DNA from: Minisyncoccota bacterium
GTDB taxonomy: Bacteria; Patescibacteriota; Minisyncoccia; Phycocordibacterales; CAJBRS01
Assembly (NCBI GenBank): GCA_035652395.1
Contig: DASRDX010000009.1
Location: 208,411-272,410, forward strand
DNA: 64,000 bases
Reading direction: 5' to 3'
The position numbers and the translations under genes were made by a program. Below the pieces are notes generated by a model. The model was not told where the DNA came from, ran no database searches, and saw only the letters and a program-made list of their open reading frames with translations. Positions 8,010 through 36,056 of the stretch are shown here, one piece after another (position 1 is the first letter of the stretch; every line of letters begins with the position of its first letter).

Positions 8010-8061
8010 ATTTTTTCTGAATTTGAAATAAACTCATTTTTATGGCATAATCCATTAAATA

Positions 8062-9027
8062 ATGGCCAATTTATTTCGGATCACAGCTAGTAATCCAGAG
8101 GCTTACCAGCATTACATCGATACAATCGAGCGAGGTTTTCCGTTAGATTCAGTCACTAGTTTTCTTGACCAAGATCAAATCTTTGCATTAAGAAATATCT
8201 ACGGTGATAAGCTAATTCGGGCTTGGGGTGCTACTGCAGGGTCTGGAAATATTCGAACTTGGCATCAACTTAATATTGGCGACCCCATTTTAATTTATCG
8301 AAAAGGCAATTTTGAATATTACGCTTTTGTAACTTTTAAAATCCACAATAAGGATTTGGCGAAACATTTGTGGCGCACCAATCCCCAGGGAGAAACCTGG
8401 GAATATGTTTACTTTTTAGATGGTCTGGTGGAAATTTCTGTTCCCCTCAAAATTTTTAATGAATTAATGGGATTTAACGAAGCTTTTCGACCATATGGGT
8501 TTGCCGCTACCGAATCAATGCGGTTAAATAGAATTGAAAATAAATTTGGATCAGTAATAGATTTTCTTAATTACCTTCGTGAAGGAAAATGGGTGGACAA
8601 AGAAACTCAGTATCCTGCTGAAGTCAAAGAAAATATTATAAAGGAGAGATTATTACGCCCTATTGGGAACACCACCATATTGGAAGCTAACCTCGAGAAT
8701 CTGATTGTCGATAAGGTTAGTGAAATTGAACCCGGCCTCAATCTCATTGGAAGACAAGTAGATACTAAAGAAGTCGGCCGATTAGATCTGTTGTGTGAAG
8801 ATAAGGATAAAAATCTGGTGGTCATCGAATTAAAAAGAGCGGCTGCTGGACCATCTATTATTGAACAGATTCAACGATATATGGGCTGGGCCATAAAGCA
8901 CCGAGCACAACCTGGTCAGCGAGTGCGAGGCATCATTATAGCCGGATCAAAAGATACTGCCTTAGAATACGCCGTTAGTGCAAATCCTTTAATGGAAGTA
9001 AAGACTTTCAATTTGTCTATTCAGTAG
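8062..9027 (+). CDS. NucS/EndoMS-like (DUF91) PD-(D/E)xK endonuclease domain protein with an N-terminal beta-barrel (PUA/EVE-like?) domain
   Basis: C-terminal EPGLNLIGRQVDTKEVGRLDLLCEDKDKNLVVIELKRAAAGPSIIEQIQRY matches the NucS C-terminal nuclease signature. Assignment of the N-terminal domain is inference. Confidence 0.6.
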   Translation: MANLFRITASNPEAYQHYIDTIERGFPLDSVTSFLDQDQIFALRNIYGDKLIRAWGATAGSGNIRTWHQLNIGDPILIYRKGNFEYYAFVTFKIHNKDLAKHLWRTNPQGETWEYVYFLDGLVEISVPLKIFNELMGFNEAFRPYGFAATESMRLNRIENKFGSVIDFLNYLREGKWVDKETQYPAEVKENIIKERLLRPIGNTTILEANLENLIVDKVSEIEPGLNLIGRQVDTKEVGRLDLLCEDKDKNLVVIELKRAAAGPSIIEQIQRYMGWAIKHRAQPGQRVRGIIIAGSKDTALEYAVSANPLMEVKTFNLSIQ

Positions 9028-9105
9028 ATCATACAAGAAGTCAGAATTGACAACAGCTTATACAAGAATTGGGCGGCTGGCCCACTTCTGTGATAAAAAT
9101 AACGA

Positions 9106-10494
9106 ATGTCCTCGAGACCTTTTCACGATGAATACAGCGATGAGCCAGAATTACAAGCTGGTGACAAAGTGGCATTTGGGAAATGGTTAACAATAACCCA
9201 TCCTTATAAAAATTGCCCAAATTGCAGACGTCGAGTCTTAGGCAATCCGATGATGCATAGCGGTGAGACCTATGTTATGGCATGTCTTTTGTGCGATTAC
9301 ACTGAGGGTTTGAATCTTCCAAAATTAAAAAAGAAAGTAATCTATCTAGATCAGTTCGTATTTGACAATATCGTAAAAACTTTGGATCCAAAGCACCCTA
9401 AGCACTCTCAAGTTATTAAGGAGCCATTCTGGAAGGAGGTATTTGAAAAGCTTGAAGGACCTACCAGAGCAGAACTTATTGTTTGTCCAGATTCATTTTT
9501 CCATATAGATGAATCGGCTCCAACAGATTATTTTAAGTCATTAGAAAGAATCTACGAACATTTTTCTGGAGGAGTCACCTTCTTAAATAACGCTAAAATT
9601 ACTGAACAACAGGTGGTCAATTACTTTAAAAACTGGCTAATCGGAAAAGATGTAATACCTGTTCTTGATCCATCTCAAATTGTGATAGGAGATCTAAATA
9701 AGTGGCACGACCGGATGAAAGTCAGTATAAGTATGCAGCCCAAAGAAGAAGAGATTAAAGAGAAGCTGGAACATAAGAAAAAAGGGTATAAGTTTTTTTG
9801 TGAAGTGTTCCGGCGGTGGCAGACAGAAACGCAGAGGAAATTTGACGATTGGTATCGTGAAGAGATTGGTGGATTTGCCAAGGGCACAATTCTTGCTGCA
9901 AAAAATTTCCAGGAACGCCAAACGGCTTTTTTGATGAACTATGTGCCAGGTCAAATAATTGATCTAAATAATATTTTACCGCCCCCTAGTGTTGATTTGC
10001 TTAAAAAATTAATGAATGAAGCATTTATAGCAGGAGCGTCCGATCAACAAGATTGTGTTAAAAAAGTGCTTGATTTTATGCAGATTGAGAATCTACAAAA
10101 AATACCTGCCATAAGAATTCAAAGTCTTATCTATGCCGCCCTTGCAGATCAGGCCGCTCATGGAAGAAAAAATCTACCTTCTCCCGGAGTCCAAGCGGAT
10201 ACTGATATGATCTCCGGGCTACTTCCATATTGTGATGCCATCTTTGTTGATAAGGAAAACGCAGCTCTTCTAGAAGATGGCCGAGTAAAAGGAAAGCTAG
10301 GAGTAAATACAAAAATATTTTCTCTCAGAAACAAGGAAGCTTTCCTTAATTATTTAGATAATATATTGTTAAAAGCTGATAATGATCATCTTAGATTTGT
10401 TCAGCAGATATATGGAAAGGATTGGGCGAAACCCTATCTGACAATAATTGAGGACATGGATAAATATGAAACCAATAATGGGAGCGACAAGTAA
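9106..10494 (+). CDS. Hypothetical protein with N-terminal zinc-ribbon (CPNC...CLLC)
   Basis: 462-aa ORF with an N-terminal CxxC...CxxC pair. No other recognisable motif. Confidence 0.5.
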   Translation: MSSRPFHDEYSDEPELQAGDKVAFGKWLTITHPYKNCPNCRRRVLGNPMMHSGETYVMACLLCDYTEGLNLPKLKKKVIYLDQFVFDNIVKTLDPKHPKHSQVIKEPFWKEVFEKLEGPTRAELIVCPDSFFHIDESAPTDYFKSLERIYEHFSGGVTFLNNAKITEQQVVNYFKNWLIGKDVIPVLDPSQIVIGDLNKWHDRMKVSISMQPKEEEIKEKLEHKKKGYKFFCEVFRRWQTETQRKFDDWYREEIGGFAKGTILAAKNFQERQTAFLMNYVPGQIIDLNNILPPPSVDLLKKLMNEAFIAGASDQQDCVKKVLDFMQIENLQKIPAIRIQSLIYAALADQAAHGRKNLPSPGVQADTDMISGLLPYCDAIFVDKENAALLEDGRVKGKLGVNTKIFSLRNKEAFLNYLDNILLKADNDHLRFVQQIYGKDWAKPYLTIIEDMDKYETNNGSDK

Positions 10495-10572
10495 TTTTTC
10501 GCCAACAGGGCGACACCTTTTATTTCTTGGGAGCAAGTGAGGAAATTTAAATGAATAAGATATAATCAAGAT

Positions 10573-11172
10573 ATGAGAAAAATTATTGTTTTATCTTTTA
10601 TTAGTCTAGATGGGGTAATGCAGGCGCCGGGCGGCCCGGACGAAGATACTTCGAGCGGGTTTAAATACGGGGGCTGGACCTTTCCATACTTTGATGAAGC
10701 GGCGGGGAAGCTGATGGATGAGCAGATGAAAGAGCCCTTTAGTTTGCTTTTGGGGCGAAAAACTTATGACATCTTTGCCAATTATTGGCCGCAACATGGA
10801 GAGAATTGGCCCGGAGTAAATAAAGCTCAAAAATACGTGGCTTCAAACACTTTGACCGAGGCCAAATGGGAAAACAGTGTCATTTTAAATGGGGATGTGG
10901 TATCCGCCGTGAAGAAATTGAAAGAGGAAGATGGGCCGGATCTTCAGGTTTATGGTTCCGGCAATTTCATTCAAACTCTTCTTAAGAACGATTTAGTGGA
11001 TGAATTATGGCTGAAAACCTTTCCCGTAACTCTTGGTGGTGGTAAGAAATTGTTTGCCGAGGGTACGATTCCGGCTGCATTTAAATTGCTGGAGTCTAAA
11101 TCTACACCCAGCGGAGTAATTTTCGCCAATTACAAGAGAGATGGGGAAGTAAAAACCGGTTCTTTTTCCTAG
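10573..11172 (+). CDS. Dihydrofolate reductase family protein (RibD C-terminal domain type)
   Basis: IIVLSFISLDGVMQAPGG...GRKTYDIF...VYGSGNF pattern of the YwjB/RibD_C family. Confidence 0.75.
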   Translation: MRKIIVLSFISLDGVMQAPGGPDEDTSSGFKYGGWTFPYFDEAAGKLMDEQMKEPFSLLLGRKTYDIFANYWPQHGENWPGVNKAQKYVASNTLTEAKWENSVILNGDVVSAVKKLKEEDGPDLQVYGSGNFIQTLLKNDLVDELWLKTFPVTLGGGKKLFAEGTIPAAFKLLESKSTPSGVIFANYKRDGEVKTGSFS

Positions 11173-11209
11173 CCTCTAAACAGGAATTGAAAAGTGTTAT
11201 ACTGCTCGC

Positions 11210-12007
11210 GTGAGTCACTATAATAAAGACAAAAAAAGGACTATTTTCAATACTGATTCCAAGGAGCCTTTTAAGATCAGTCGATCAAAGATTGATCTTT
11301 TTACCGAGTGTCCGCGCTGTTTTTATTTAGATCAGGTGCTCGGCGTGCCACGCCCGCGACCCTTTCCCTTCACTTTAAATGCAGCTGTTGATAAGTTGCT
11401 GAAGAAGGAATTCGATATTCATCGCGCGGCGGGGAGCCCTCATCCCATGATGGAACAATATGGAATTGATGCCGTGCCATTTGCTCACGATAATCTGGAG
11501 GAATGGAGAGACGCTCTTCGAAAGGGCATTAGCTATTTGGATCCGGAAACCAATCTTTTGGTGCGAGGCGGAATAGATGATGTTTGGATTACCTCGGACA
11601 AGGAATTATTAATTGTTGATTATAAAGCTACAGCCAAAGAGGCCGAAGTTACTCTAGATGCAGAGTGGCAGGACGGATACAAGAGACAAGTGGAAGTTTA
11701 TCAATGGCTCTTTCGTCAAAATGGTTTTAAAGTCTCCGATACCGCTTGGTTTGTCTACGTGAACGGCAAAACAGACAGAAAAGCTTTTGATGGGAAGTTG
11801 GATTTCGATATTAAATTAATTTCTCACAAGGGATCTGATAAATGGATTCCGGCGACACTGAAGGAGATCAAGAAATGTTTAATAAGCGAGAAATCGCCGG
11901 CGCCGGCCGAGGACTGCGAGTATTGCAGTTATCGCAATCAGGCGGCCGCCGCTTTTCAGGCCCGTATTAGCGCTAATAAAGAATTGAAAGAATCAACCTT
12001 GTTTTAA
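11210..12007 (+). CDS. Cas4/RecB-like PD-(D/E)xK nuclease with Fe-S cysteine quartet
   Basis: N-terminal CPRCFY and C-terminal CEYCSY cysteines flank a DYK...QVEVYQ nuclease core, as in Cas4/AddB nuclease domains. GTG start. No CRISPR array nearby. Confidence 0.65.
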   Translation: MSHYNKDKKRTIFNTDSKEPFKISRSKIDLFTECPRCFYLDQVLGVPRPRPFPFTLNAAVDKLLKKEFDIHRAAGSPHPMMEQYGIDAVPFAHDNLEEWRDALRKGISYLDPETNLLVRGGIDDVWITSDKELLIVDYKATAKEAEVTLDAEWQDGYKRQVEVYQWLFRQNGFKVSDTAWFVYVNGKTDRKAFDGKLDFDIKLISHKGSDKWIPATLKEIKKCLISEKSPAPAEDCEYCSYRNQAAAAFQARISANKELKESTLF

Positions 12008-16729: not shown

Positions 16730-17887
16730 ATGGAGAAACAAGTTTTGCTTTTTTATATTGGTAACGGAGGACTGAAGAGTGCTTTAATCAGTCAATCCAA
16801 AACAGATCTACCGAAAATTTTGTTACTGGATCGAGAAAGTCTCGGAAATTCGGCAAGCTTGTCTAAGAAGGAGCTGGAAGAAGTTGTCTATAGAAAATTG
16901 GATGCACTCGCCGGTCGGATGCAAAAAGCTATTCTAGATGCCAACCTTACGAATAAGAAGGTAAACGCAGTTTTAGCCATCGTTTCCGCTCCTTGGTATC
17001 ACGCTCTGACCAAAACCTATAAATTGAAAAAGGATGAACCCTTCTTAATTAAAGACAAAACCATCACGGAATTATTGGAATCAACCGATAAAGATTCAGC
17101 TCCGGAGCAAGAAGAAGTCACGGTCTTGGAAAGAAAAATTATTCACATTGCTCTAAATGGCTACGTCACGGATTCGCCGATTAATAAAAAAGCAACCGAT
17201 CTGGAAGTTTCGGTAATTCAAAGTCTGACGGAGAAAAAATTCCTAAGCGAGATTGAAAATATTTTATCCAGATATTTTCCGATTTCGGCTTACCATTTTC
17301 ACACTTTGGCCTTGGCCAGTTTCGTTACCATTCGGGATATTCTGAAAGAGACCAAGGATTTTCTTTTAATTAATGTCACGAATTTAATCAGCGAAATTTC
17401 CTTGGTTAAGGACAATCTGCTACAGGAAACTATTTCGATTCCAATTGGTTTTGCCGGCTTACTGGATAAAGTTTCAAAGGCCCTGAATGTTACTCCCGAG
17501 GTAGCCTTTTCTCTTTTAAAAATGTACAAAGGTGATCAGTTGGAAAAACAGATTGGGGAGAAATTGGGAGAATCCCTAGCCGTCTTCAGGAAGGAATGGG
17601 CGGCTCAAATTGGGGAGGCCTTCAAAAATCTCTCGGGAGGAGTGGCGCTTCCGGCCGCCTGCTACTTATTGTCGCATCACCAGCTAGAAAATCTGTTTGC
17701 CGATTTGATTCAACCAGAAGATTACAGTCAGTTTTCTTTCAATCAGGGAGAATTTCATATTCGAAATATTTCGGCTCTGGACTTCGTACAATTTATTGAC
17801 TTCAATCGCTTACCTCTCGATTCCGGAATGGCGGTGGCTATCATTTTCGCCAAACAAACCCTTTTGAATCGGGAACGAATGAGTTAG
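16730..17887 (+). CDS. Hypothetical protein, possibly a degenerate actin-like ATPase fold (FtsA/PilM-like)
   Basis: LLFYIGNGGLKSAL (phosphate-1-like) and FLLINVTNLISEISLV (phosphate-2-like with the glycines replaced). Inference only. Confidence 0.4.
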   Translation: MEKQVLLFYIGNGGLKSALISQSKTDLPKILLLDRESLGNSASLSKKELEEVVYRKLDALAGRMQKAILDANLTNKKVNAVLAIVSAPWYHALTKTYKLKKDEPFLIKDKTITELLESTDKDSAPEQEEVTVLERKIIHIALNGYVTDSPINKKATDLEVSVIQSLTEKKFLSEIENILSRYFPISAYHFHTLALASFVTIRDILKETKDFLLINVTNLISEISLVKDNLLQETISIPIGFAGLLDKVSKALNVTPEVAFSLLKMYKGDQLEKQIGEKLGESLAVFRKEWAAQIGEAFKNLSGGVALPAACYLLSHHQLENLFADLIQPEDYSQFSFNQGEFHIRNISALDFVQFIDFNRLPLDSGMAVAIIFAKQTLLNRERMS

Positions 17888-26834: not shown

Positions 26835-27911
26835 ATGGCGAAAGATTATTACAAAACTCTAGGCATCGATAAAAAGGCCTCGAAAGACGAGATCAAGAAG
26901 GCTTTTCGTGCGCAGGCACATAAGTATCATCCGGATAAAGGCGGCGGCGAAGCCGCCGCCACCAAATTCAAAGAAGCTAGCGAAGCTTACTCTGTGTTGT
27001 CTGATGAGAAGAAACGAGCTCAATACGATATGTATGGAGAGGCCGGCGCCGGATTTGGAGGCGCCGGCCAAGGCTTCGGCGGCTTTGATTTCAGTCAAGG
27101 CTTTGACCCAAGTCAATTTCAGGACTTCGATCTCGGAGATATCTTTGGCGACTTCTTCGGCGGAGGCCGTGCTTCCAGACGCTCCGCACGAGGTCGTGAC
27201 ATCTCCATCGATCTCGAAATTCCATTTGCTGAATCGGTTTTTGGCACCGAGCGCAATGTTCTCCTGACCAAAACCAGCGTCTGTAGTCATTGTCACGGTA
27301 GTGGTGGCGAACCGGGCACCGAAATGCAAACCTGTCCGACCTGCAACGGCCAAGGACAGATTAATGAAGCCCGCCGTTCGTTTTTGGGCGTCTTTAATAC
27401 GGTTATAGTCTGTCCTACTTGTCACGGTAGCGGCCAAGTGCCGAAAGTAAAATGCAAACAATGTAAAGGTGAGGGAGTGGAAAGAAAACAGACCGAAATC
27501 AAAATCAAAATTCCCGCCGGCATCAATAACGGCGAAATGATCCGACTTTCCGGCGAAGGCGAAGCTATTTCAGGCGGCTCGGCCGGAGATCTATACGTCA
27601 AAATCCATGTGCGACCTCATCCAGTTTTCACTAAGGAAGGCTCAAACCTTTACATGACCCTGAAAATTAAATTGAGCGAGGCACTCCTGGGCACCGAGAT
27701 CCCCATTGAGACTTTGGACGGAAAAGTTACGGTTAAGGTTCCAGCCGGCATCACTTTTGGAGAAATCTTGCGAATTAAAGGCAAAGGCGTACCGGGCGAG
27801 CGAACCAATCGTCGCGGGGATCTAATGATCCGAATTCAGATTGAGTTGCCGAAAAAACTTTCTAAAGAAAGCAAAAAGCTAATTGAAGAACTCAAAAAAG
27901 AGGGGATTTAA
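26835..27911 (+). CDS. dnaJ: Chaperone DnaJ
   Basis: J-domain HPD motif, G/F-rich linker, and four CxxCxGxG zinc-finger repeats. Confidence 0.97.
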   Translation: MAKDYYKTLGIDKKASKDEIKKAFRAQAHKYHPDKGGGEAAATKFKEASEAYSVLSDEKKRAQYDMYGEAGAGFGGAGQGFGGFDFSQGFDPSQFQDFDLGDIFGDFFGGGRASRRSARGRDISIDLEIPFAESVFGTERNVLLTKTSVCSHCHGSGGEPGTEMQTCPTCNGQGQINEARRSFLGVFNTVIVCPTCHGSGQVPKVKCKQCKGEGVERKQTEIKIKIPAGINNGEMIRLSGEGEAISGGSAGDLYVKIHVRPHPVFTKEGSNLYMTLKIKLSEALLGTEIPIETLDGKVTVKVPAGITFGEILRIKGKGVPGERTNRRGDLMIRIQIELPKKLSKESKKLIEELKKEGI

Positions 27912-28165
27912 ATAAACATTTCATCAACATAGCACCAGCGCCAATTTTGCTCCGGTCCAAAGAATTGAATGATTGGATGGCCAGTTGCTTTAAAATGTTT
28001 AGTAGCGTGCTTGTTCTTGGATGAATCGCAGCAACCCACATGACCGCAACTGAGGCAAAGTCTAAGTGAAACCCATTTATCTCCCATTTTCAAACATTCT
28101 TCACAACCAGAACTTTTAGGTTTGACCTCTTTAATACTGCTTATATGAGTACATTTCTTTTCCAT
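27908..28165 (-). CDS. UBP-type zinc-finger domain protein
   Basis: C..C...C..C..H...C..C..H spacing typical of zf-UBP. Convergent with dnaJ, with a 4-nt overlap. Confidence 0.7.
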   Translation of the reverse strand: MEKKCTHISSIKEVKPKSSGCEECLKMGDKWVSLRLCLSCGHVGCCDSSKNKHATKHFKATGHPIIQFFGPEQNWRWCYVDEMFI

Positions 28166-28202
28166 GCCCTAATCATATCAACTATTATGTTAAAATATAG
28201 AG

Positions 28203-28712
28203 ATGAAAACTATTTTGGCCCTCTTACCCAATTCCTTAACCCATTCATACGGCGCTGATCTAAGCATTCTAGTAATTCTTTTTATTTTGACCGCCGTCTA
28301 CGGTTTGTATTGGGGCAAGCAGCGGCTGGTTTCCTTAATTTTGGCTTTTTATCCGGCCATTCTGCTTTTCCTGAACTTTCCTTACGTTAATAATCTTCTA
28401 TTAATTAAAGCGACGGCCGGCCAGATCTTTGTTTCCAAATGCGTTATCTTTCTAATATTTCTTATTCCAATTCATCTTATTTTTAATCGATTTGTCTTCG
28501 GGGATTTCGGCTTCAATAGTAATCGAAAGTTTCTGCAAGCCGCTATTCTTTCCATCTCCATTCTGATCTTGATCATCGTTTTCTTCTATAGAGTGGTGCC
28601 CTTAACAAACGTCTACTCTGTTTCCTTACCGTTAGCTCGTTATCTCTCAACCTCCAAAGATTTCTTCTGGTGGCTTTTAGTGCCATTTGTTGGACTATTT
28701 TTCACTCGGTAG
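28203..28712 (+). CDS. Hypothetical integral membrane protein (CvpA-like?)
   Basis: Four predicted TM helices. A TAAAAT -10 box lies 6 nt upstream of the ATG. Confidence 0.5.
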   Translation: MKTILALLPNSLTHSYGADLSILVILFILTAVYGLYWGKQRLVSLILAFYPAILLFLNFPYVNNLLLIKATAGQIFVSKCVIFLIFLIPIHLIFNRFVFGDFGFNSNRKFLQAAILSISILILIIVFFYRVVPLTNVYSVSLPLARYLSTSKDFFWWLLVPFVGLFFTR

Positions 28713-28751
28713 ACATTACCAAAAAAACCGGTGTCGTCAAAAATAACGTCA

Positions 28752-29054
28752 TTATCCACTTGTTTTATTTGGAAGCGGAATCCTCTGCATTTCTTTTTCT
28801 TTAAAGCGACTTTGGCGAAGTAGAAACGCAAGTTCTCCATTGCGTTTAATAGGCATTCCAATCATATGATGACATTCTATACATATCAGAAGTCGAACAT
28901 TATCCGGATCTGTATTATTTAAGTCAGATTGAAATTTAATTAAATCGGAAGGCAAGATTTGATTTAAATAACAGCATTTAGGAGCTTTTTTATCCTTTTT
29001 AAAATATGCGAATAGTCTGTTTCCGCAAACACACAGTAATTCATACTTTTTCAT
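28752..29054 (-). CDS. Hypothetical small Cys-rich protein
   Basis: Internal ATG of the 147-aa ORF; CVCG...CC...CIECHH pattern. Start choice uncertain. Confidence 0.3.
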   Translation of the reverse strand: MKKYELLCVCGNRLFAYFKKDKKAPKCCYLNQILPSDLIKFQSDLNNTDPDNVRLLICIECHHMIGMPIKRNGELAFLLRQSRFKEKEMQRIPLPNKTSG

Positions 29055-29374
29055 GAATTTATTCTTAGGTCTTATAACAAAATAAGAATAGTGTGGCAAT
29101 AATTGTTGTCTATAGCCAACAACAATTAGGAAATAAATTTCTACATGTGCAAAATACTGCCTCTGCGCGCCAACAGTGATTAAGTCCAAAAACAATTATA
29201 GAATGAGATTCTGTTATATATAATAAACAGCGGAAGTTTTTTAACAAAAATTATTATTTAAATTTAAGTCTTTAATAGTTTTATTGATTCGGCTAGCATC
29301 TTTCATAGTATAAATTTGGATTAGGTAATGTCTTGTGTTAAAATTCTTAAAAAATCGCTTAAATAAGGATTCAA

Positions 29375-30817
29375 ATGAAACCCATGAATGGAGAGAGAAA
29401 AACGTTAGAACTTTTTGAAAAAGCAGCAAGAAACGTAGTGGCTTATAAAAAGTTTCTCAAAAAAAACCACTTAAATGCAACTGATATTTCGAGATCAAAA
29501 GATTTTTTGACTATCCCAATAATGAATAAGTCCAACTACCTTCGTCGATATCCATTAAAGGAGTTGACCTGGAAAGGTTCTATGCGTCATCATCTTATTT
29601 TTACTTCCACGTCCGGATCAACGGGCGAGCCATTTTATTTCCCGCGCGAAAAACTTGTCGATAATCAAGCCGCATGGGTTCATGATCTTTTTTATAAATA
29701 TCGTTCAGATTCTAAAGATAAATCGACTTTAGTGATCGTTTGTTTCGGTATGGGTGTTTGGATTGGTGGAATTCTCACTTATCAGGCCTTTAAAATAATG
29801 GGGGATAGAGGTGAATCTATATCTATTCTTACACCAGGTATTAATAAAGCAGAGATATTCAATGCCTTGAAAAAGATCGCCTACAATTTTGATGAGGTCA
29901 TTATGGTTGGGTACGCTCCGTTTATAAAAGATATTGTTGATGAGGCACCTAGTCAGGGTGTTAATTTGCGCAAAATGAATGTAAGACTTATTTTTGCGGC
30001 CGAGGCATTTACAGAAGGTTTTCGTGATTATATTGCAAAGAAAGCCGGTCTCAAAAATGTTCTTCTCGATACGATGAATATCTACGGCAGTGCGGATATC
30101 GGCGCCATGGCTTTTGAAACGCCAATTAGCATTCTAATGCGCCGTTTAGCCCAAAGAAAACCGGAGCTTTTTGACTCTCTTTTTTCATCAATCTCAAAAA
30201 CTCCTACTTTTGCGCAGTATAATCCGGAATTTATTCATTTTGTTTCCAATAATGGTCGTATTCTGCTTTCCGGGGACAGCACCATACCTTTAATCAAATA
30301 CGATATTGGTGACCACGGGGGAACCATGACCTTCAGAGAGGTCGTTCGAATATTTCGCAATCACGGTATAAATATTTTGCGGGAAGCGGAAAAGGCTGGT
30401 ATATCCAAAACCATTTTGAAATTTCCTTTTGTTTATGTCTACGAAAGAGCCGATCTTTCCACCACTCTATACGGATTGCAGATTTATCCGGAAACAGTGC
30501 GGGAAGCTCTTTTGACAAAACCAATCTCAACCTATTTAACCGGTAAGGTTACTCTCATTACTCGATATGATCACCTCCAGAATCAGTACTTGGAAATCAA
30601 TTTGGAACTTCAAAAAAACAAAAACGCCTCTCAAGCATTGAAGGCTCGAACTTTGACGCAGATTGTGAAAAATTTGCGCCTGAAAAACTCGGAGTATCGG
30701 GAACTTTCAAATTTTTTGAAGAAGCGAGCTTATCCACGCTTAGTCTTTTGGCCAAATGAACATCCTGAACATTTTCGCCCGGGCATTAAACAAAAGTGGG
30801 TTAAAAAACAACGCTAA
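29375..30817 (+). CDS. Adenylate-forming enzyme, phenylacetate-CoA ligase/CapK/F390-synthetase family
   Basis: TSTSGSTGEPFYFP adenylation motif and size match the PaaK-like family. Confidence 0.7.
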   Translation: MKPMNGERKTLELFEKAARNVVAYKKFLKKNHLNATDISRSKDFLTIPIMNKSNYLRRYPLKELTWKGSMRHHLIFTSTSGSTGEPFYFPREKLVDNQAAWVHDLFYKYRSDSKDKSTLVIVCFGMGVWIGGILTYQAFKIMGDRGESISILTPGINKAEIFNALKKIAYNFDEVIMVGYAPFIKDIVDEAPSQGVNLRKMNVRLIFAAEAFTEGFRDYIAKKAGLKNVLLDTMNIYGSADIGAMAFETPISILMRRLAQRKPELFDSLFSSISKTPTFAQYNPEFIHFVSNNGRILLSGDSTIPLIKYDIGDHGGTMTFREVVRIFRNHGINILREAEKAGISKTILKFPFVYVYERADLSTTLYGLQIYPETVREALLTKPISTYLTGKVTLITRYDHLQNQYLEINLELQKNKNASQALKARTLTQIVKNLRLKNSEYRELSNFLKKRAYPRLVFWPNEHPEHFRPGIKQKWVKKQR

Positions 30818-30818
30818 A

Positions 30819-31610
30819 CTATTTTTTGATCCGTTCGTGTAACCTCTGAGCCTCTTTCCACGCTAAATTAAAACTATTTTTGAACATCTCCGCTATTTCT
30901 TTATGTTCAATGATAATTCCAAATTTTTTTACGGGATCTACTAATGCTACTCGATTCCCATATATAGCCATATCACAAGGGAATTTATATTCTTTTTCTG
31001 GTATGAGCGAGATTTGATCAGGTATATTTTTGGGCAATGTTCTCCAGCGAGCTACAGACTCCTTGTTGGCAGGATTTATTGCCCGCATCTTTATACCTTT
31101 TTTAATACGAGGTATATTATGTTCTTCTAGAAAGTTCGGGAAAATTTTAAAAATAGTCCCTGGATTTGCATAAGTCTTTAAATCTTTCGCCTCAGAAGAA
31201 AAGATATCATGATAAGTATTTTTCAATCCTTCAACGCCCTCATATACTTTCACGGTTGGCTTGTATCGTGTTTCTTTATGATAAGCACGCAATTCAGGGA
31301 TGATTTTTTTCACCGAATCTAAAGCAAGAGTACGGTCTTTTACAGCGTCTTCTGCGATTTTCAGAATAGCATCTGGGGTAGCTGCCACAAATTGTTGACA
31401 TTTATGACCCACCACCAACTCCACCAGACCGCGTTTCCGCAAAGAATCAATGATGACATAAGTCGAGCTTCTATTAACTTTTGCCTCTTTAGCTATCACA
31501 CTGACTGTTGCGGTCCCGAGCTTTATTAAACAGACATAAACTGTGATTTGTTTCTCACTTAATCCAATGGAAGTTAAGTCATTTTTTGTGTTGTTAAGCA
31601 TCAACAACAT
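30819..31610 (-). CDS. TrmB-family transcriptional regulator
   Basis: N-terminal wHTH LSEKQITVYVCLIKLGTATVSVIAKEAKVNRSSTY plus TrmB-type C-terminal domain. ORF track start is TTG at 31637; ATG at 31610 is preferred. Confidence 0.7.
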   Translation of the reverse strand: MLLMLNNTKNDLTSIGLSEKQITVYVCLIKLGTATVSVIAKEAKVNRSSTYVIIDSLRKRGLVELVVGHKCQQFVAATPDAILKIAEDAVKDRTLALDSVKKIIPELRAYHKETRYKPTVKVYEGVEGLKNTYHDIFSSEAKDLKTYANPGTIFKIFPNFLEEHNIPRIKKGIKMRAINPANKESVARWRTLPKNIPDQISLIPEKEYKFPCDMAIYGNRVALVDPVKKFGIIIEHKEIAEMFKNSFNLAWKEAQRLHERIKK

Positions 31611-31926
31611 CTTAGAATTAATCTTTAAAAGAATCAATGGGTCGTTCAGTCGGTGGAAATATTGATGAACCTGAATCTGCTCGTCATGCAGATAAAATCA
31701 AATCTTCGGCAGGTGAATGCGGTATTATTCTACGGTGATTGAGCCCCGCTTAGCCCACGGGGATTTTTAATGATAAAATAAACACATGAATCAGATTGTC
31801 TTGATTAGATTTACTTTTAAACACGGAGGAAAAAGAAAGTGGATAAAATGGTCTAAAGAAAAAATGAAAAGTTTATCTATCTTCTTCCAAAAAGCTTGTT
31901 TGTCTATTTAATTTTGAGTTAAAGAA

Positions 31927-32952
31927 ATGAACCCTAGGGACATTAAATTATCAAATTTTTATCGAATGGTAACTCAGTCAGACCGTATTAAGTTTTTATT
32001 GAGTTACGCCGTTCTGGCGCCATCGACTCACAACAGCCAGCCATGGCTTTTTAAAATTGAGAATAATGTCTGTAAGGTTTATTACGATCCAAAATATTTG
32101 ATTCCGGTAGGAGATCCTCTAACTCGCGATCTGCATATAAGTATCGGGTGCGCGGTGGAAAACTTGAATATCGCCGCTAAATATTTTGGTATGGCTCCCA
32201 TTGTTAATCTCGGTCCGTTCGAGGAAAAAAATCTTCTTGCAAAAATAATTTTCTCCGAACCCGCCAATAAGCTCGATAACTACGGGAATCTCTTAAATAC
32301 GATCCCGAAAAGAATTAATGCCCGTGGAGTTTTCCAAAAGACCGAAATCAATTTGTCTACTTTGGACGAAGTCAAATCTGAAATGCAAAAGAGTGGTTAT
32401 ACCGATAATTTAACTCTTCACCTCATTGTGGATCGAGATAAAATAAATAGTCTTGCCCGTTTAACGGCACGGGGTCTCCGTATGGCTTATCAAAAACCTA
32501 TTTTTAGAAGGGAAATGTCTCGATGGATGAATAATAGTCTTTCGCCGAAAAAAGAAGGGCTCCACGGTTACGCGCTTAAAATGCCACTGTTTTTGTCTTT
32601 CATTATTCCTACTTTAGTTCGTCTGAAGGATATTGGCCCTTTTTTAGCCGACAAAAATTATCAAAGTATTTCATCTGCTCCGCTTTTAGTAGTTATAAGC
32701 GCCAAGAAGAATGATCCGCACACTTGGCTCGAAACTGGGCTATTAGCCGAAAGACTCATGCTTGAATTTCAGAGTCAAGATCTGCAGACTTCCATTTTTG
32801 TAGCCTCTATTGAAATGGCTGATCTTTATAAAGAGGTTCAGAAAATTTTAAATACGACTGAAATTCCACAATTTCTTTTTGCGGTAGGGAAAATAGACTC
32901 CCTTCATAAATTCACGCCCCGTCATCGATTAGAAAAGAAAATTATTAATTGA
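31927..32952 (+). CDS. Nitroreductase-fold protein, large (SagB-type/Acg-like two-lobed) form
   Basis: LAPSTHNSQPWLF nitroreductase signature. The 341-aa size fits SagB-like FMN dehydrogenases. Confidence 0.65.
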   Translation: MNPRDIKLSNFYRMVTQSDRIKFLLSYAVLAPSTHNSQPWLFKIENNVCKVYYDPKYLIPVGDPLTRDLHISIGCAVENLNIAAKYFGMAPIVNLGPFEEKNLLAKIIFSEPANKLDNYGNLLNTIPKRINARGVFQKTEINLSTLDEVKSEMQKSGYTDNLTLHLIVDRDKINSLARLTARGLRMAYQKPIFRREMSRWMNNSLSPKKEGLHGYALKMPLFLSFIIPTLVRLKDIGPFLADKNYQSISSAPLLVVISAKKNDPHTWLETGLLAERLMLEFQSQDLQTSIFVASIEMADLYKEVQKILNTTEIPQFLFAVGKIDSLHKFTPRHRLEKKIIN

Positions 32953-32953
32953 C

Positions 32954-34060
32954 ATGGATCTCTTCTCTAAAATTAAAAAACAACCTCACAAACCGGATAC
33001 GATCTGGCAACCCTCTATTTTTGATTTAAAAACGCAGAAGGATCAAAAGGCCGTGGCAGATCTTATAGAAAGTGGGGCAATTGACCGAATAATTGAAACT
33101 TTTCATATTCAGAATAAAGAATTGGCCGAAGTTCGGGATCCATCTAAAATTTCTCATCCAACCGAAACAAAGACAGAATCTAAAACAGATCCCGACGAAG
33201 GAGTTTGGGTGTATTTCCCTTGGAGGAAAAGTCTGATTCACCTTTTGGCGAAATCTGATTATATAGAACTTCGGACGTCTCGAAATAGTCACTTGATTAC
33301 CCTGGAGGAACAGAAAAAGTTCGAGGGGGCGAGAATTGGTTTCGCCGGTCTAAATGTCGGTAATCCGGGGGCCGTTTGTATTACGCTAGAGGGAGGATCC
33401 CGTCAGATGAAATTGGCTGACCTTGATCCTTTATCTGTGTCGAATATGAACCGTTTTAATACCGGCATTGATAATTTAGGAGTAAATAAAGTCATAATCT
33501 CTGCTAGACAAATATTCGAAATAGATCCATTCATGGAAATAGAATTGTATGAAGATGGAATTAAGCCGGAAAATATTGATAAATTTCTTCTTGAGCCTAA
33601 AATTGACCTACTCATTGAGGAAATGGACAATTTAAAATTGAAAATTCTTATCCGGGAAAGAGCTAAGCTTCATCGGATCCCAGTGATTATGGTCACCGCT
33701 GATGGCATTTTAGACATTGAAAGATATGATTTGGAACCTGATTTGCCAATTATGGCGGGCAACTTGAGGGCGGAAGTCATTGAAGGGATAAATAATGTTG
33801 TGCCCAGCAAAGGCAACTTGCGAGAAAGAGTGATGTTGGCGCGGGATTTTATCGGGAAGGATCTGCATTCTCAACGTTTAAACGAAGCTTTTGAAAAAAT
33901 TGGTACGGAAATCCCAAGCATTCCGCAGTTAGCCGAATGGACGTTTTTGCGCGGCGCCCTCCTCTGTCATGGCGCAAGAAAAATTCTAAGCGGAGAGAAA
34001 GTGGTATCCGGAAGATACTTATTAACTTCTGACAGTATTTTGAAAAAGAAAATAGCCTGA
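32954..34060 (+). CDS. E1-like ThiF/MoeB-family protein with an N-terminal ~115-aa extension
   Basis: RIGFAGLNVGNPG Rossmann motif and DLDPLSVSNMNRF, which matches the ThiF hhDxDxVexSNLnRQ motif. The start codon is 2 nt after the nitroreductase stop. Confidence 0.7.
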   Translation: MDLFSKIKKQPHKPDTIWQPSIFDLKTQKDQKAVADLIESGAIDRIIETFHIQNKELAEVRDPSKISHPTETKTESKTDPDEGVWVYFPWRKSLIHLLAKSDYIELRTSRNSHLITLEEQKKFEGARIGFAGLNVGNPGAVCITLEGGSRQMKLADLDPLSVSNMNRFNTGIDNLGVNKVIISARQIFEIDPFMEIELYEDGIKPENIDKFLLEPKIDLLIEEMDNLKLKILIRERAKLHRIPVIMVTADGILDIERYDLEPDLPIMAGNLRAEVIEGINNVVPSKGNLRERVMLARDFIGKDLHSQRLNEAFEKIGTEIPSIPQLAEWTFLRGALLCHGARKILSGEKVVSGRYLLTSDSILKKKIA

Positions 34061-34073
34061 TAGAATTTTAACG

Positions 34074-35651
34074 ATGGATGTCTTTCAAAACTTTGATCTT
34101 TTGACAGTAGGAATCGTTACGGCCGGAATTGGTATTCTGGGCTTTACTCTCTACATCAATAATCGGCGAAGCATTACCAACCAAACTTTTTTGATGTTGT
34201 CGGTAGTCTCGATAGTTTGGAGCATTCTAAACTATTTAAGTTACCAGTTGATCCTACCCAACCAGCTGTTCTTGATAAGAGGAGAACTTTTTTGCGCTAT
34301 TTGGCACACTTATTACTTTTTTAAATTCCTGTATGTGTTGCCGGAAGAGACGGTTACTTTTCCGAGATATTATCAGAGATTTTTAATTCCCTGGGTTTGC
34401 CTATTATCTCTACTAACTTTGAGTAACTTAGTAGCGGCCACTCCAGGAAGTTACTCCGGAGATGGTCATTTAATTTCATTCCTGCCCGGTCCCTTAATTC
34501 CTTTTTTCGGGCTAACCATTGTTATTCTGCTTATTAGTGCCTTCATTATTTTAATTCGCAAGATTGTTCGGGCTAAATCAGGTCAGAAAGCGCCGCTCGT
34601 CTATATTTTGATAGGCACTCTCACCACTTTCTTTTTGATCATTACTTTTATTTTCATTTATCCTGCTTTCCGTGGAGATTCACACTATATTATCTATGGG
34701 GCCTTGTTCAATTTCCCTTTAATAGCCCTGACTAGTTATGCCATTTATCAGCGAAAATTATTAAACGTTCGAGCAGCTAGTGTCTCGGTTATTACTTCAG
34801 TCCTATGCGTAGTGTCATTTCTTGAAATTATTTTTTCCAATACTTTAGTTTTAATTATTTTTCGATCCGCAGTCTTTTTAATTGTTTTGGCAATTAGCAT
34901 CTTGATGAACCGTTTTGTGGAAACTATTGCCGAACAAAGAGAAGAATTGGAGCGCGCCAATGAGAGACAAGAGGGTTTAATCCACTTTATTAGTCATCAA
35001 ATTAAGGGGTATCTGACCAAAAGCAAGGCCGCTTTTGCCGGTATTTTGGAGGGGGATTTCGGGGAAGTCTCTGAGAATGTTAAGTCTGTGGCTAAAGAAG
35101 GATTGAAGGATAATCAGGAAGGGGTAGAGACCGTCATGAGCATTTTGAGCGCCGCCAATTTGAAAAGTGGTACAGTTACCTACAAAAGAGAATCACTTGA
35201 TTTTAGGAAGTTAGTAATCGATCAGATCGATAGTCACCGAAAGGCCGCCGTCGATAAAGGGTTGCGTTTTGAAAGTCAGATTGATCAAGAACCGAATTAT
35301 GCTTTGATCGGAGACGGGGAACAATTGAGTAAGCACGTTATCGGAAATCTGATCGATAATTCCATTAAATACACCCTGAAGGGGAACGTCACGATTGGCT
35401 TGAGAAAAAATGGAGACAAAATTTTATTTTGGGTAAAGGATAGTGGTGTTGGAATTACAGATGAAGATAAGAAGCGCCTCTTCACCGAAGGCGGGCGCGG
35501 CAAGGAATCAACTAAAGTGAATGTTGACAGCACCGGTTACGGCCTTTATATCGCCAAACAAATCGTGGAAGTTCATAAAGGGCGCATTTGGGCCGAATCG
35601 GAAGGGGCCGGAAAAGGTTCTACTTTTTTTGTGGAATTATCCGCTACTTGA
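34074..35651 (+). CDS. Sensor histidine kinase (polytopic membrane N-terminus)
   Basis: Six or more TM helices, HisKA H-box FISHQIKG, and HATPase_c N, G1 and G2 boxes (NLIDNSIKYT, DSGVGI, GYGLYIAKQIV). Confidence 0.85.
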   Translation: MDVFQNFDLLTVGIVTAGIGILGFTLYINNRRSITNQTFLMLSVVSIVWSILNYLSYQLILPNQLFLIRGELFCAIWHTYYFFKFLYVLPEETVTFPRYYQRFLIPWVCLLSLLTLSNLVAATPGSYSGDGHLISFLPGPLIPFFGLTIVILLISAFIILIRKIVRAKSGQKAPLVYILIGTLTTFFLIITFIFIYPAFRGDSHYIIYGALFNFPLIALTSYAIYQRKLLNVRAASVSVITSVLCVVSFLEIIFSNTLVLIIFRSAVFLIVLAISILMNRFVETIAEQREELERANERQEGLIHFISHQIKGYLTKSKAAFAGILEGDFGEVSENVKSVAKEGLKDNQEGVETVMSILSAANLKSGTVTYKRESLDFRKLVIDQIDSHRKAAVDKGLRFESQIDQEPNYALIGDGEQLSKHVIGNLIDNSIKYTLKGNVTIGLRKNGDKILFWVKDSGVGITDEDKKRLFTEGGRGKESTKVNVDSTGYGLYIAKQIVEVHKGRIWAESEGAGKGSTFFVELSAT

Positions 35652-35700
35652 TTTTTTATTTAAAGATGGTATAATTCGGAAAATAAACCAAGGAGGTCTT

Positions 35701-36003
35701 TTGGATAAAATCATTGTTGGAATTCTGCGTCGTGAGCAAAAGGACTTGCTTCAGGAAGAAGTTCTCGCCATCGAACATGCCTTTCCGGGAAAAGAGATTC
35801 AGTACGTGAAGCTAGATTCGCGAGATTATCTCGAGCACTCAAAACTTTGCAGAGAGATCAAGCCGAGCGTGGTTATCTTGCCCATGGATCGCCCTATTCC
35901 AGCGAAGGCAATGGAAGAGGGTGTCGTGCATGTCGAAGCCACCACTGGCCGACTGCGAAGGCTTCTGCCATTGCGGCCGGAGTTCGAACCATATGTTTCG
36001 TGA
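35701..36003 (+). CDS. Hypothetical small protein (possible degenerate receiver-like domain)
   Basis: The ORF track ORF overlaps the HK 3' end. It is trimmed to the TTG start at 35701, 4 nt after an AAGGAGG RBS-like sequence. An intrinsic terminator follows. Confidence 0.3.
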   Translation: MDKIIVGILRREQKDLLQEEVLAIEHAFPGKEIQYVKLDSRDYLEHSKLCREIKPSVVILPMDRPIPAKAMEEGVVHVEATTGRLRRLLPLRPEFEPYVS

Positions 36004-36010
36004 TTTTATT

Positions 36011-36056
36011 AGCCCAGCCACCATCAAAAGTGGCTGGGCTAATTATTTTATTTCAG
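36011..36056 (+). terminator. Intrinsic terminator after HK/small-protein operon
   Basis: AGCCCAGCCAC-catcaaaa-GTGGCTGGGCT 11-bp stem followed by a T-rich tract. Confidence 0.8.

Follow-up and report, generated by a model that had tools for sequence, protein, structure and literature searches.

Gene organization and conservation of the locus

The window, a 64,000-nucleotide stretch of a Minisyncoccota bacterium contig, contains two adjoining forward-strand genes assigned from ORF calls and Pfam/NCBIfam models: one for a 341-aa nitroreductase-fold protein (NTR; 31927-32952) and one for a 368-aa ThiF/E1-like protein (E1; 32954-34060). The gap between them is 1 nt, a single base lying between the NTR stop codon TGA (32950-32952) and the E1 ATG (32954). 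A first-pass annotation of this DNA had described the pair with the same ORFs and in the same place, but had started it at position 31638, which opens the intergenic region; the coding sequence starts at 31927. The three neighbors that it named are likewise where it put them. A PaaK-like adenylate-forming (ANL) ligase gene (29375-30817, forward strand; 480 aa) is recognized by its motifs and AF2 fold; a TrmB-family helix-turn-helix regulator gene (30819-31637; Pfam TrmB, E=3e-12) lies on the reverse strand; and a gene for a multi-TM histidine kinase (HK; 34074-35651, forward strand; 525 aa), identified by HATPase_c and hydrophobic segments, follows the pair, its ATG at 34074 lying 13 nt past the E1 stop.

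The TrmB gene is divergent from the oxidase-cyclase-kinase operon. The 289-bp intergenic region between them (31638-31926), read from the sequence as the presumed promoter/operator, holds a GC hairpin with a T-run (~31744-31770) and a 25-codon ORF (31666-31743) with no Cys, one Ser, and no Thr; Rfam and tRNA searches of 31638-31926 gave no match. At the other end, a strong intrinsic-terminator-like hairpin on the forward strand (36008-36043; a 14-bp stem with 8 GC pairs, then a T-run) is predicted to end the transcription unit ahead of trpS. Response regulators, receiver domains, deaminating enzymes, and small ORFs ending in GG are all absent from the window.

Conservation was assessed in 80 Patescibacteria loci, with a subset of 51 that have enough flanking sequence. 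The NTR gene lies on the same strand as the E1 gene and within 2.5 kb of it at 73 of the 80 loci, the PaaK-like gene within 4.5 kb at 69, and the HK gene on the same strand within 6.5 kb also at 69; for the 51-locus subset the counts are 49, 48, and 50, with all three present at 46. The linkage spans at least three gene orders, and in the closest relatives the PaaK-like gene is immediately 5' of the NTR gene. The pairing of NTR with E1 is far beyond chance, and the PaaK-like and HK genes, which the first-pass annotation had rightly noted but treated as mere surroundings, are conserved parts of the module in related loci. Only about 10 of the 80 loci have a TrmB gene close to the module, and in L083 it is upstream in the same orientation; TrmB is probably a lineage-specific local regulator.

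Module genes are also found joined in single proteins, including ligase-E1 fusions (P0254, P0250), Patescibacteria E1-NTR fusions (P0241-P0246 and others), one protein combining ELFV-DH, PaaK, and E1 (P0479), and a fusion of E1 with an aromatic amino-acid lyase (P0383); these natural fusions argue that ligase, cyclase, and oxidase belong to one pathway. Many relatives have an ELFV dehydrogenase, an aminotransferase, or an aromatic ammonia-lyase nearby or fused. Across the 80 loci no additional gene family is recurrent within the module and no small ORF is conserved in the neighborhoods; GG-ending small ORFs occur at 8 of 79 loci, all as antisense artefacts, and none is conserved. An alpha/beta-hydrolase or a 310-aa protein of unassigned function accompanies the module in some loci.

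Assignment of the module proteins

The Pfam ThiF model covers only residues 113-247 of E1 and leaves about 110 N-terminal residues outside it. This extension, previously called unexplained and thought to be possibly RRE-like, has no PqqD/RRE Pfam match and aligns with the N-terminus of small-molecule TrzS-type fusions. Against the NCBIfam model NF005901 ("Rv1355c family"), E1 scores 296.8 bits (E=3.2e-88), with residues 11-364 aligned to model positions 4-340 of 722, the N-terminal half including the extension; in an exhaustive profile search, the alignments of fusion proteins of 720-790 aa run from residue ~10 to residue ~370. The equivalog cutoff of 476 bits is unreached by the split proteins (E1 296.8, NTR 70.3); a fused Patescibacteria relative of 743 aa (L066) scores 534.2 bits over its full length. 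Rv1355c is TrzS, which was shown biochemically to cyclize N-acyl-Trp with ATP and to desaturate with O2, two activities separated by the variants D217A and R540A (PMC12856293).

E1 is accordingly best described, from its homology, as a putative TrzS-type ThiF/E1-like ATP-dependent cyclase with a family-specific N-terminal domain (residues ~1-100). Its adenylation site is intact: G132-G136, D156, D158, N166-R167, K179, and D225 are invariant among 29 sequences. The DxD...NR motif and D225 line up with TcdA motifs, TcdA being also the best solved-structure sequence match of the E1 profile (E=3.5e-12), and we infer that D225 corresponds to the catalytic D217 of TrzS. PRK08223, a ThiF-like model of ~300 aa that we tentatively take to be the TyzB/MoeW group, scores 56 bits against E1, compared with 297 bits for Rv1355c.

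Pfam places NTR in Nitroreductase/TM1586_NiRdase. Residues 24-337 align end to end with positions 2-317 of the 319 in NF047509, the NCBIfam Acg family model, at 192.1 bits, 7 bits under the curated cutoff of 199, and the PDB sequence match is MsAcg (2YMV); NTR also matches the C-terminal half of the Rv1355c model (E=1e-19, 70.3 bits). All 45 of the 45 orthologues of the upstream type match only the Acg model at 1e-30 or better, the best reaching E=5.4e-69; 22 orthologues of the downstream type match PRK14851/Rv1355c instead, and the downstream-type oxidases of Patescibacteria score highest on PRK14851, a 679-aa model matched by both protein halves. The segment VLAPSTHNSQPWLF occupies NTR residues 29-42, and an APS-HN-QPW motif is invariant in the orthologues. 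NTR thus appears to be an Acg-type, monomeric, two-lobed flavin-dependent oxidase just under the family cutoff, and is proposed to act as a desaturase.

The ligase (29375-30817) has no Pfam match and matches NCBIfam PaaK N-terminal models weakly (31-35 bits, against PaaK cutoffs of 646-700). Its AF2 model (pLDDT 88) gives PaaK1/2, BT_0428, HCL, and ClxA as top Foldseek matches at 13-15% identity, and also matches McbA structurally. In ClxA and McbA the acyl-adenylate is condensed straight with a hydroxyl or amine nucleophile, not with CoA. In 30 ligase homologues the TSGSTGEP P-loop and the YGSAD, GD, and ER-D motifs are invariant. No acyltransferase of the OxzA/TyzA/TrzA type recurs near the module in the 80 loci, although TyzA-like proteins have no Pfam model and may escape such a search; since none is found nearby, the ligase is probably its replacement and is proposed to make, as the first enzyme of the pathway, the N-acyl-amino-acid-type substrate in place of an OxzA/TrzA-type enzyme. 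Alternatively, it could be an ordinary CoA ligase supplying an acyltransferase encoded elsewhere.

HK is identified by HATPase_c (E=5.5e-22); HisKA_7TM scores 24.6 bits, under its cutoff. Residues 1-276 contain about eight distinct hydrophobic segments (the scan lists nine, of which the last three overlap), and the H, N, G1, and G2 boxes are conserved in 64 orthologues, so that the protein is predicted to be a membrane-embedded sensor kinase with ~7-8 TM segments, co-transcribed with the cyclase. Outside Patescibacteria, fused homologues are followed by a 7TMR-DISM kinase phosphorelay in 6 of 6 loci checked (four of them annotated as Rv1355c family, in Bacteroidota genera), and the 7TM domains of the Patescibacteria and Bacteroidota kinases have no detectable homology (hhalign probability 0.7%). 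HK is proposed to be linked to the pathway product as its sensor. In many of the loci the module is flanked by DnaK-DnaJ ... TrpRS-AspRS, and the adjacency of HK might partly be a product of conserved synteny.

Proposed pathway, alternative readings, and significance

We consider it fairly probable that the NTR-E1 pair is a homologue of the ThiF-FDO oxazolone synthetases in which the two parts are split and their order is swapped, set within a conserved Patescibacteria operon module. This reading draws on homology, conserved residues, linkage, and fusions; the ring chemistry we infer by homology. In the pathway so envisaged, the ligase would turn a carboxylic acid into an acyl-adenylate and join it to an amino acid, giving an N-acyl-amino-acid-type amide and standing in for the acyl-CoA N-acyltransferase of known systems; in many relatives the acid would probably derive from an amino acid through the neighboring or fused deaminating enzyme. 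E1 would then adenylate the amino-acid carboxylate, and attack by the amide oxygen would close a 5(4H)-oxazolone ring, a step proposed because of homology to TrzS and analogy with TcdA chemistry. The Acg-type oxidase would desaturate the C-alpha/C-beta bond to give a conjugated oxazolone, a role suggested by its homology to the TrzS and TyzC FDO domains. In the least certain step, HK would tie the small molecule to signaling, either as sensor or in control of production. Several points count against this reading, among them the scores of the split proteins below the Rv1355c equivalog cutoff and the lack of a deaminating enzyme and a response regulator in the window. The window NTR falls in the Acg (FDO-B-like) branch, outside the FDO-A branch of OxzB, TyzC, and TrzS. 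The desaturation carried out by TrzS needs O2, whereas an anaerobic, fermentative life is assumed for many Patescibacteria.

In place of a classical N-fatty-acyl oxazolone, the same enzyme logic might yield another product, such as a heterocycle from a 2-oxo-acid- or cinnamate-derived amide, or might serve some other carboxylate cyclization. This is a less likely outcome but one to be taken seriously: a PaaK-like enzyme replaces the acyltransferase, and PaaK-like relatives take aryl or short acids; the accessory slot is filled by an ELFV dehydrogenase, aminotransferase, or aromatic ammonia-lyase; the oxidase is Acg-type rather than FDO-A; and some loci carry the additional hydrolase or 310-aa protein. 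On the other side, the cyclase clearly belongs to the TrzS lineage from end to end, and oxidases of the downstream type resemble those of TrzS and OxzB, so that the same ring chemistry is the cautious expectation. The PaaK fold of the ligase, the amino-acid dehydrogenases and aminotransferases near many of the modules, and the syntenic housekeeping genes in the flanks would also suit a catabolic or detoxifying cluster, in which the PaaK-like enzyme makes aryl-CoA for energy or salvage, NTR reduces nitro or quinone compounds, and HK is a mere syntenic neighbor that senses no product. We regard this as improbable, because the ligase-cyclase and cyclase-oxidase fusions indicate channeled biosynthesis, catabolic partners such as an oxidoreductase or a thiolase do not recur, and the kinase link arises independently in 6 of 6 non-Patescibacteria loci checked; moreover, the characterized Acg/FDO-type enzymes have lidded active sites and act as oxidases (PMC10404671).

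The first-pass annotation had framed the pair as SagB/TOMM-like, that is, as azoline RiPP machinery without YcaO in which E1 activates a precursor peptide and NTR oxidizes the azolines. It was right that a YcaO partner is missing: none was found among the module genes and ten large uncharacterized ORFs scanned or, by eye, among the other window ORFs, and no YcaO family recurs in the 80 loci. The framing itself does not survive, and a peptide-modifying role is now very unlikely. NTR is Acg-type (192 bits) and E1 Rv1355c/TrzS-type (297 bits); NCBIfam (E<=0.01) returns no SagB-type, TOMM ThiF-like, or ocin-ThiF model for either protein, and for NTR lists only Acg, Rv1355c, and PRK14851. E1 has no PqqD/RRE model and shares its extension with small-molecule TrzS-type fusions, it is fused elsewhere to a small-molecule ligase and to amino-acid-metabolizing enzymes, and the neighborhoods of the 80 loci, having no conserved small ORF, offer no Cys/Ser/Thr-rich precursor. 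Hardly any weight attaches to the idea that E1 is a plain MoeB/ThiF activator of a sulfur carrier (MoaD/ThiS) for molybdopterin or thiamin, with NTR an unrelated neighbor. Against MoeB/ThiF-type models E1 scores 20-55 bits where the cutoffs are 152-647 (e.g., 29.8 against 266 and 55 against 159), far below its 297 bits for Rv1355c; it has two Cys and no CxxC; no MoaD/ThiS partner accompanies it, a GG-ending small ORF being neither in the window nor conserved in the loci; and its linkage and fusions are to NTR and the PaaK-like gene. A further doubt, that NTR is a generic Acg-type enzyme without linkage to E1, holds as to type and fails as to linkage, which is strongly conserved. The fallback suggestion, small-molecule adenylation together with FMN-dependent oxidation, in essence describes the activity of the nearest characterized relatives.

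With the oxazolone pathway as the preferred reading, the occurrence of the ligase together with the cyclase, oxidase, and HK suggests a small-molecule signaling circuit. In its full form, in which the module is a self-contained Patescibacteria circuit that makes an amino-acid-derived oxazolone (azlactone-type) without using acyl-CoA and has HK as receptor, and the same logic operates in Bacteroidota through a non-homologous 7TMR-DISM kinase and a phosphorelay, this idea is tentative and rather doubtful. If it is true, oxazolones would be a widespread, so far unrecognized class of bacterial signal, the module would be the first candidate for an autoinducer or host-sensing system among symbiotic bacteria of ultra-small size, and a substrate class would be assigned to the Acg family in the dormancy regulon of M. 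tuberculosis. The near-obligatory operon link between synthetase and kinase, found independently in two distant phyla, makes signaling a testable hypothesis; the physiological role of bacterial oxazolones is named as an open question in the Discussion of PMC12856293, where their resemblance to signaling molecules is noted and where c-di-GMP turnover genes are described as adjoining trzAS. Patescibacteria genomes have lost most biosynthetic capacity, and the module is one of the very few conserved pathways of a "secondary-metabolite-like" kind that they encode; its vertical inheritance at a fixed housekeeping locus suggests that it is important for the Patescibacteria lifestyle. With a ligase in place of the acyltransferase, N-acyl amino acids and oxazolones would be made without dependence on acyl-CoA, a route of biocatalytic interest.

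Comparison with characterized systems

The genes for the autoinducer synthases CqsA and LuxM are co-located with those for CqsS and LuxN, multi-TM HKs without a large extracytoplasmic domain. The module shares this co-location of synthase and HK, which was found at 50 of 51 Patescibacteria loci and 6 of 6 other loci; there is no sequence relationship, and the likeness is one of analogy alone.

TrzA and TrzS (Rv1356c and Rv1355c) form the N-acyl tryptazolone pathway of Mycobacterium (Kleetz et al. 2025, PMC12856293). The window E1 is homologous over its whole length to the cyclase half of TrzS, N-terminal domain included, and is likewise directly partnered by a nitroreductase-superfamily flavin-dependent oxidase, so that ATP-dependent cyclization followed by flavin-dependent desaturation is proposed for both. 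Unlike the fused TrzS, however, the window version consists of two genes in reversed order, with the oxidase first, and its oxidase is Acg-type rather than FDO-A4; a PaaK-like ligase is conserved in place of a TrzA-like N-acyltransferase, the operon includes a 7TM HK, and the host belongs to the Patescibacteria. The tyrazolone pathway, TyzA/TyzB/TyzC (Rv2336-Rv2338c; Grigg et al. 2023, PMC10404671), provides a precedent for the split, with the cyclase and a monomeric lidded FDO of ~340-370 aa encoded by adjacent, separate genes; its TyzA uses lauroyl-CoA as acyl donor, and TyzB, at 318 aa (PMC10404671), would, judging by length, have no long N-terminal domain. ThiF and nitroreductase domains are also coupled in OxzB of the Pseudoalteromonas rubra oxazolone synthetase OxzA/OxzB (de Rond et al. 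2021; bioRxiv 10.1101/2020.06.11.147165), whose substrate is a small-molecule N-acyl amino acid. Unlike the window pair, OxzB is a fusion, comes from a proteobacterium, and has the N-acyltransferase OxzA as its companion; no ligase or kinase linkage has been reported for it.

Individual components have more distant counterparts. Ind3 is another member of the PaaK family. By analogy with it and with ClxA of closoxazole biosynthesis, which share the PaaK-like ANL fold, the ligase may activate a carboxylate for a nucleophile other than CoA; Ind3 performs ATP-dependent coupling in the assembly of the indolmycin oxazolinone (PMC8246080). TcdA (CsdL) is an ATP-using, ThiF-like tRNA t6A cyclodehydratase that cyclizes an N-acylated amino-acid moiety, reportedly to an oxazolone form (PMC12596934); unlike the window E1, it acts on tRNA and has neither such an N-terminal domain nor an oxidase partner. 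The family model of the FMN-binding oxidoreductases Acg, Rv3131, and Rv3127 (DosR regulon, M. tuberculosis) covers the window oxidase from end to end. Unlike the stand-alone Mycobacterium enzymes, the window oxidase shares an operon with a TrzS-type cyclase, a coupling that hints at a substrate class and offers a lead to what Acg, Rv3131, and Rv3127 do during dormancy of M. tuberculosis. The system as a whole is not the undescribed one that it was first taken for, since oxazolone synthetases combining ThiF with a flavin oxidase became known between 2021 and 2025 (OxzB, TyzBC, TrzS; PMC10404671, PMC12856293); what appear to be undescribed are the substitution by a ligase, the Acg-type partner, and the link to a kinase.

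The probable cyclase-oxidase gene pair

Two plus-strand genes form the pair: a 341-aa ORF at 31927-32952, which contains VLAPSTHNSQPWLF and encodes a nitroreductase-fold protein (NTR), and the 368-aa ORF that comes next at 32954-34060, which encodes an E1-like protein. A single base separates the stop codon of the first (TGA, 32950-32952) from the start codon of the second (ATG, 32954). Pfam assigns the first product to Nitroreductase/TM1586_NiRdase and restricts ThiF in the second to residues 113-247. ORF coordinates and Pfam/NCBIfam searches bear out the pair and the neighbours listed in the first-pass annotation: a PaaK-like ligase (29375-30817), a divergent TrmB-family regulator (30819-31637), and a multi-TM histidine kinase (34074-35651) after a gap of 13 nt from the E1 stop. 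The span of 31638-34060 proposed there holds for the genes, but its start, 31638, belongs to the intergenic region and not to a coding sequence.

The E1-like protein matches NCBIfam NF005901, 'Rv1355c family protein' (Rv1355c is TrzS), at E=3.2e-88; its residues 11-364 align with model positions 4-340 of 722, N-terminal extension included. An exhaustive profile search with the protein returned 1115 representative clusters at E<=1e-30, many of them fusions of 720-790 aa aligned from about residue 10 to about residue 370. The extension earlier called unexplained is thus covered by both the family model and the fusions, and the alignments from about residue 10 mark it as a hallmark of the cyclase lineage and not as a module for peptide recognition that was added on. 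In the AF2 model (pLDDT 85), the N-terminus is a confidently folded beta-alpha-beta-alpha unit with a beta-hairpin, attached to a ThiF core. The Gly-rich loop, D156/D158, N166-R167, K179, and D225 (EEMDN motif) are invariant among 29 E1 homologues; a CxxC motif is absent from the protein.

NTR aligns end to end with the NCBIfam model for Acg family FMN-binding oxidoreductases (192 bits, cutoff 199) and more weakly with the C-terminal half of the Rv1355c model (E=1e-19). Position relative to the E1 gene separates two types of flavin-dependent oxidase (FDO) in related loci: at <=1e-30, oxidases upstream of E1 (n=45, including that of the window) match the Acg model only; those downstream (n=22) match PRK14851 and the FDO half of Rv1355c. 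In the lineage of the window, a cyclase of TrzS type is thus paired with an oxidase of Acg type (FDO-B-like). The Acg-type oxidase looks like a displacement inside the module.

These assignments bear on other readings of the pair. A TOMM/RiPP system, which the first-pass annotation favoured, is rejected: neither protein matches a SagB-type or TOMM-type NCBIfam model, no precursor is present, and no YcaO occurs among the window ORFs scanned. Its fallback idea, small-molecule adenylation with FMN-dependent oxidation, appears essentially right. Activation of a sulfur carrier by a MoeB/ThiF-type enzyme is rejected too: the NCBIfam models for MoeB, ThiF, and TcdA reach only 20-55 bits on the E1-like protein, and GG-ending small ORFs are absent from the window and spurious in related loci. 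Some 4 kb 5' of the E1-like gene, the minus strand encodes an 85-aa UBP-type zinc finger (27908-28165; PF02148, E=9e-14); as a ubiquitin-like link it is rejected, having no homologue in 80 related loci. Anti-phage defence is likewise set aside, as PADLOC gave generic domain matches only.

A conserved module and its fusions

A genome scan recovered 80 related loci, almost all of which carry the labels of Patescibacteria groups (some automated locus labels read 'Saccharibacteria' or 'Gammaproteobacteria'). Module gene content was taken from tblastn and ORF clustering, and partners were counted in the 51 loci with enough flanking sequence. Four genes are co-inherited: those for E1, NTR, the PaaK-like ligase, and the multi-TM kinase. 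On the strand of E1, NTR is found in 49/51 loci, the PaaK-like gene in 48/51, the kinase in 50/51, and all three partners in 46/51. The set persists through several gene orders (PaaK-NTR-E1-HK, NTR-E1-PaaK-HK, and PaaK-E1-NTR-HK, where HK is the kinase). In many loci, as in the window, dnaK-dnaJ and trpS-aspS flank the module, and this recurring position indicates vertical inheritance. Only about 10 of the 80 loci have TrmB close to the module, and the ligase is immediately 5' of the oxidase in the closest relatives; therefore the inverted TrmB gene of the window is a local rearrangement.

An extra slot beside the ligase is filled in 32 loci by an ELFV (Glu/Leu/Phe/Val) dehydrogenase and in 9 by a class I/II aminotransferase; neither was found in the window. 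ORF clustering across the 80 loci gave no further recurring gene family around the module, so that an acyltransferase, transporter, or small ORF as a conserved member is excluded. A protein of about 310 aa with no Pfam match lies between ligase or cyclase and kinase in a few loci (L008, L028, L036, and L080, cluster c42; L001/L007); it may be a tailoring enzyme and carries a Gly-rich motif that recalls methyltransferases.

Module genes are also fused to one another. The PaaK-like ligase is joined to E1 in proteins P0254 (889 aa, Liptonbacteria) and P0250 (901 aa), with 42-45% identity to the window ligase across about 475 aa, and E1 is joined to NTR in P0241-P0246 and others; the E1-NTR fusion of locus L066 scores 534 bits, above the Rv1355c cutoff. 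P0479 (1242 aa; L089 6001-9729 and L090 819-4547, two NCBI MAGs) combines ELFV dehydrogenase, PaaK-like ligase, and TrzS-type cyclase and has NTR, an alpha/beta-hydrolase, and a 7TM kinase as neighbours. P0383 (924 aa; L091 153-2927) combines E1 with an aromatic amino-acid ammonia-lyase/aminomutase (PF00221, E=1e-170) and is followed by a 476-aa protein without a Pfam match, NTR, and a 7TM kinase. In all of these fusion contexts, genes for NTR and a 7TM kinase come after the fusion. As Rosetta stones, these fusions argue that ligase, cyclase, and oxidase would work one after another on a single small molecule, and their partners suggest that the pathway input may often be a deaminated amino acid.

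Possible signalling link and surrounding sequence

Residues 1-276 of the kinase form about eight distinct hydrophobic segments, and the protein has no large extracytoplasmic domain. Across 64 orthologues it retains the H, N, G1, and G2 boxes, and conservation in the membrane region roughly equals that in the catalytic part. Searches by tblastn and HMM found no receiver domain or response regulator anywhere in the window; stand-alone receivers occur in 17/80 loci. Outside Patescibacteria, all six fused homologues examined (L084, L086, L087, L088, L092, and L093) share one gene order: receiver, fusion, a 227-269-aa protein (before or after the fusion, depending on the locus), 7TMR-DISM histidine kinase, hybrid receiver-kinase, and receiver. 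Four of the six are named 'Rv1355c family protein' (Pedobacter, Dyadobacter, Algoriphagus, and Mucilaginibacter), and the other two, from metagenome or genome contigs, have an identical layout. The 7TM sensor regions of Patescibacteria and Bacteroidota have no detectable homology, and on this ground the synthetase-kinase association seems to have arisen twice; two apparent origins favour a functional link over mere synteny. The 227-269-aa proteins beside the Bacteroidota fusions were considered as acyltransferases and rejected, having no Pfam or NCBIfam assignment; one gave a sub-threshold LuxS-like match (17 bits) that is probably noise.

The 289-bp TrmB/oxidase intergenic region (31638-31926) carries a GC-rich plus-strand hairpin (CCCCG-9 nt-CGGGG) with a T-run after it (about 31744-31770) and a 25-codon ORF upstream of it (31666-31743, MNLNLLVMQIKSNLRQVNAVLFYGD); together they could represent a leader or attenuator, or else a remnant. 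Rfam and ARAGORN found no known RNA element in this leader. Beyond the kinase, whose 3' end it overlaps, orf160 (35521-36003, plus strand, 160 codons) has no Pfam match; a promoter-like site lies at 35648-35675, and no terminator-like hairpin in the region is stronger than the one after the ORF (36008-36043). The ORF is rejected as a module member: it is not conserved behind the kinase in related loci, and its one homologue in the 80 loci (L050) is not beside a kinase. GC is 0.35-0.38 at 28001-32000 (membrane protein, orf147, ligase, and TrmB) vs about 0.42-0.45 elsewhere, consistent with local rearrangement or insertion. Farther away, 7164-12007 holds a nuclease-like run, perhaps an islet for restriction or defence: ATP-cone and Mrr_cat (7164-8009), NucS_C/PDDEXK (8062-9027), a 462-aa protein with no match (9106-10494), and a PD-(D/E)XK/Cas4-like protein (11210-12007). 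ORFs 3795-5036 (413 aa) and 16730-17887 (385 aa) match no Pfam family at E<=0.001.

Proposed pathway and known oxazolone systems

The AF2 model of the ligase (pLDDT 88) matches PaaK1/2, BT_0428, HCL, ClxA, and McbA, and ANL motifs are invariant among its homologues. ClxA and McbA share this fold and couple adenylates straight to hydroxyl or amine nucleophiles, not to CoA. In known oxazolone pathways the activated acyl group arrives as acyl-CoA, and ThiF separately activates the amino-acid carboxylate. Two ATP-dependent carboxylate activators in one module fit this two-activation chemistry, from which we infer that the PaaK-like ligase replaces the acyl-CoA N-acyltransferase (OxzA/TrzA); alternatively, it may make a CoA ester for an unlinked acyltransferase. 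With the ligase as replacement, it would form an amide of the N-acyl-amino-acid type, the E1-like cyclase would adenylate the carboxylate of the amide and close the oxazolone ring, the Acg-type oxidase would desaturate the product, and the kinase would tie it to signalling. The cyclase and oxidase roles, drawn from homology, are likely; that the ligase performs the amide-forming first step is plausible, somewhat better than an even guess; and the kinase is a doubtful candidate for receptor of the product. An O2 requirement may fit poorly with anaerobic hosts.

TrzS converts N-acyl-tryptophan, by ATP-dependent cyclisation and then O2-dependent desaturation, to an N-acyl oxazolone, and its partner TrzA is an acyl-CoA N-acyltransferase (Kleetz et al., PMC12856293); according to the same paper, oxazolones hydrolyse. 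OxzAB is a related system (de Rond 2021). TyzACB has separate adjacent cyclase and oxidase genes (Grigg 2023, PMC10404671), a precedent for the split form seen in the window. The pair is therefore homologous to a known kind of enzyme, but split and with the gene order swapped; it would work like TrzS/TyzBC, and its cyclase belongs to that lineage. Unlike the described systems, the split protein falls below the equivalog cutoff, the oxidase is not of the FDO-A type, and the pair has no acyl-CoA N-acyltransferase partner. In the literature library searched, no paper was found that ties oxazolone synthetases to Patescibacteria, PaaK-like ligases, or 7TM kinases. The chemistry is probably of a kind already known, but three features appear to be unreported: a design that does without acyl-CoA, an oxidase partner of Acg type, and, in a genome-reduced lineage, a kinase linkage that spans phyla. 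Between them, these features make oxazolone function approachable by experiment.
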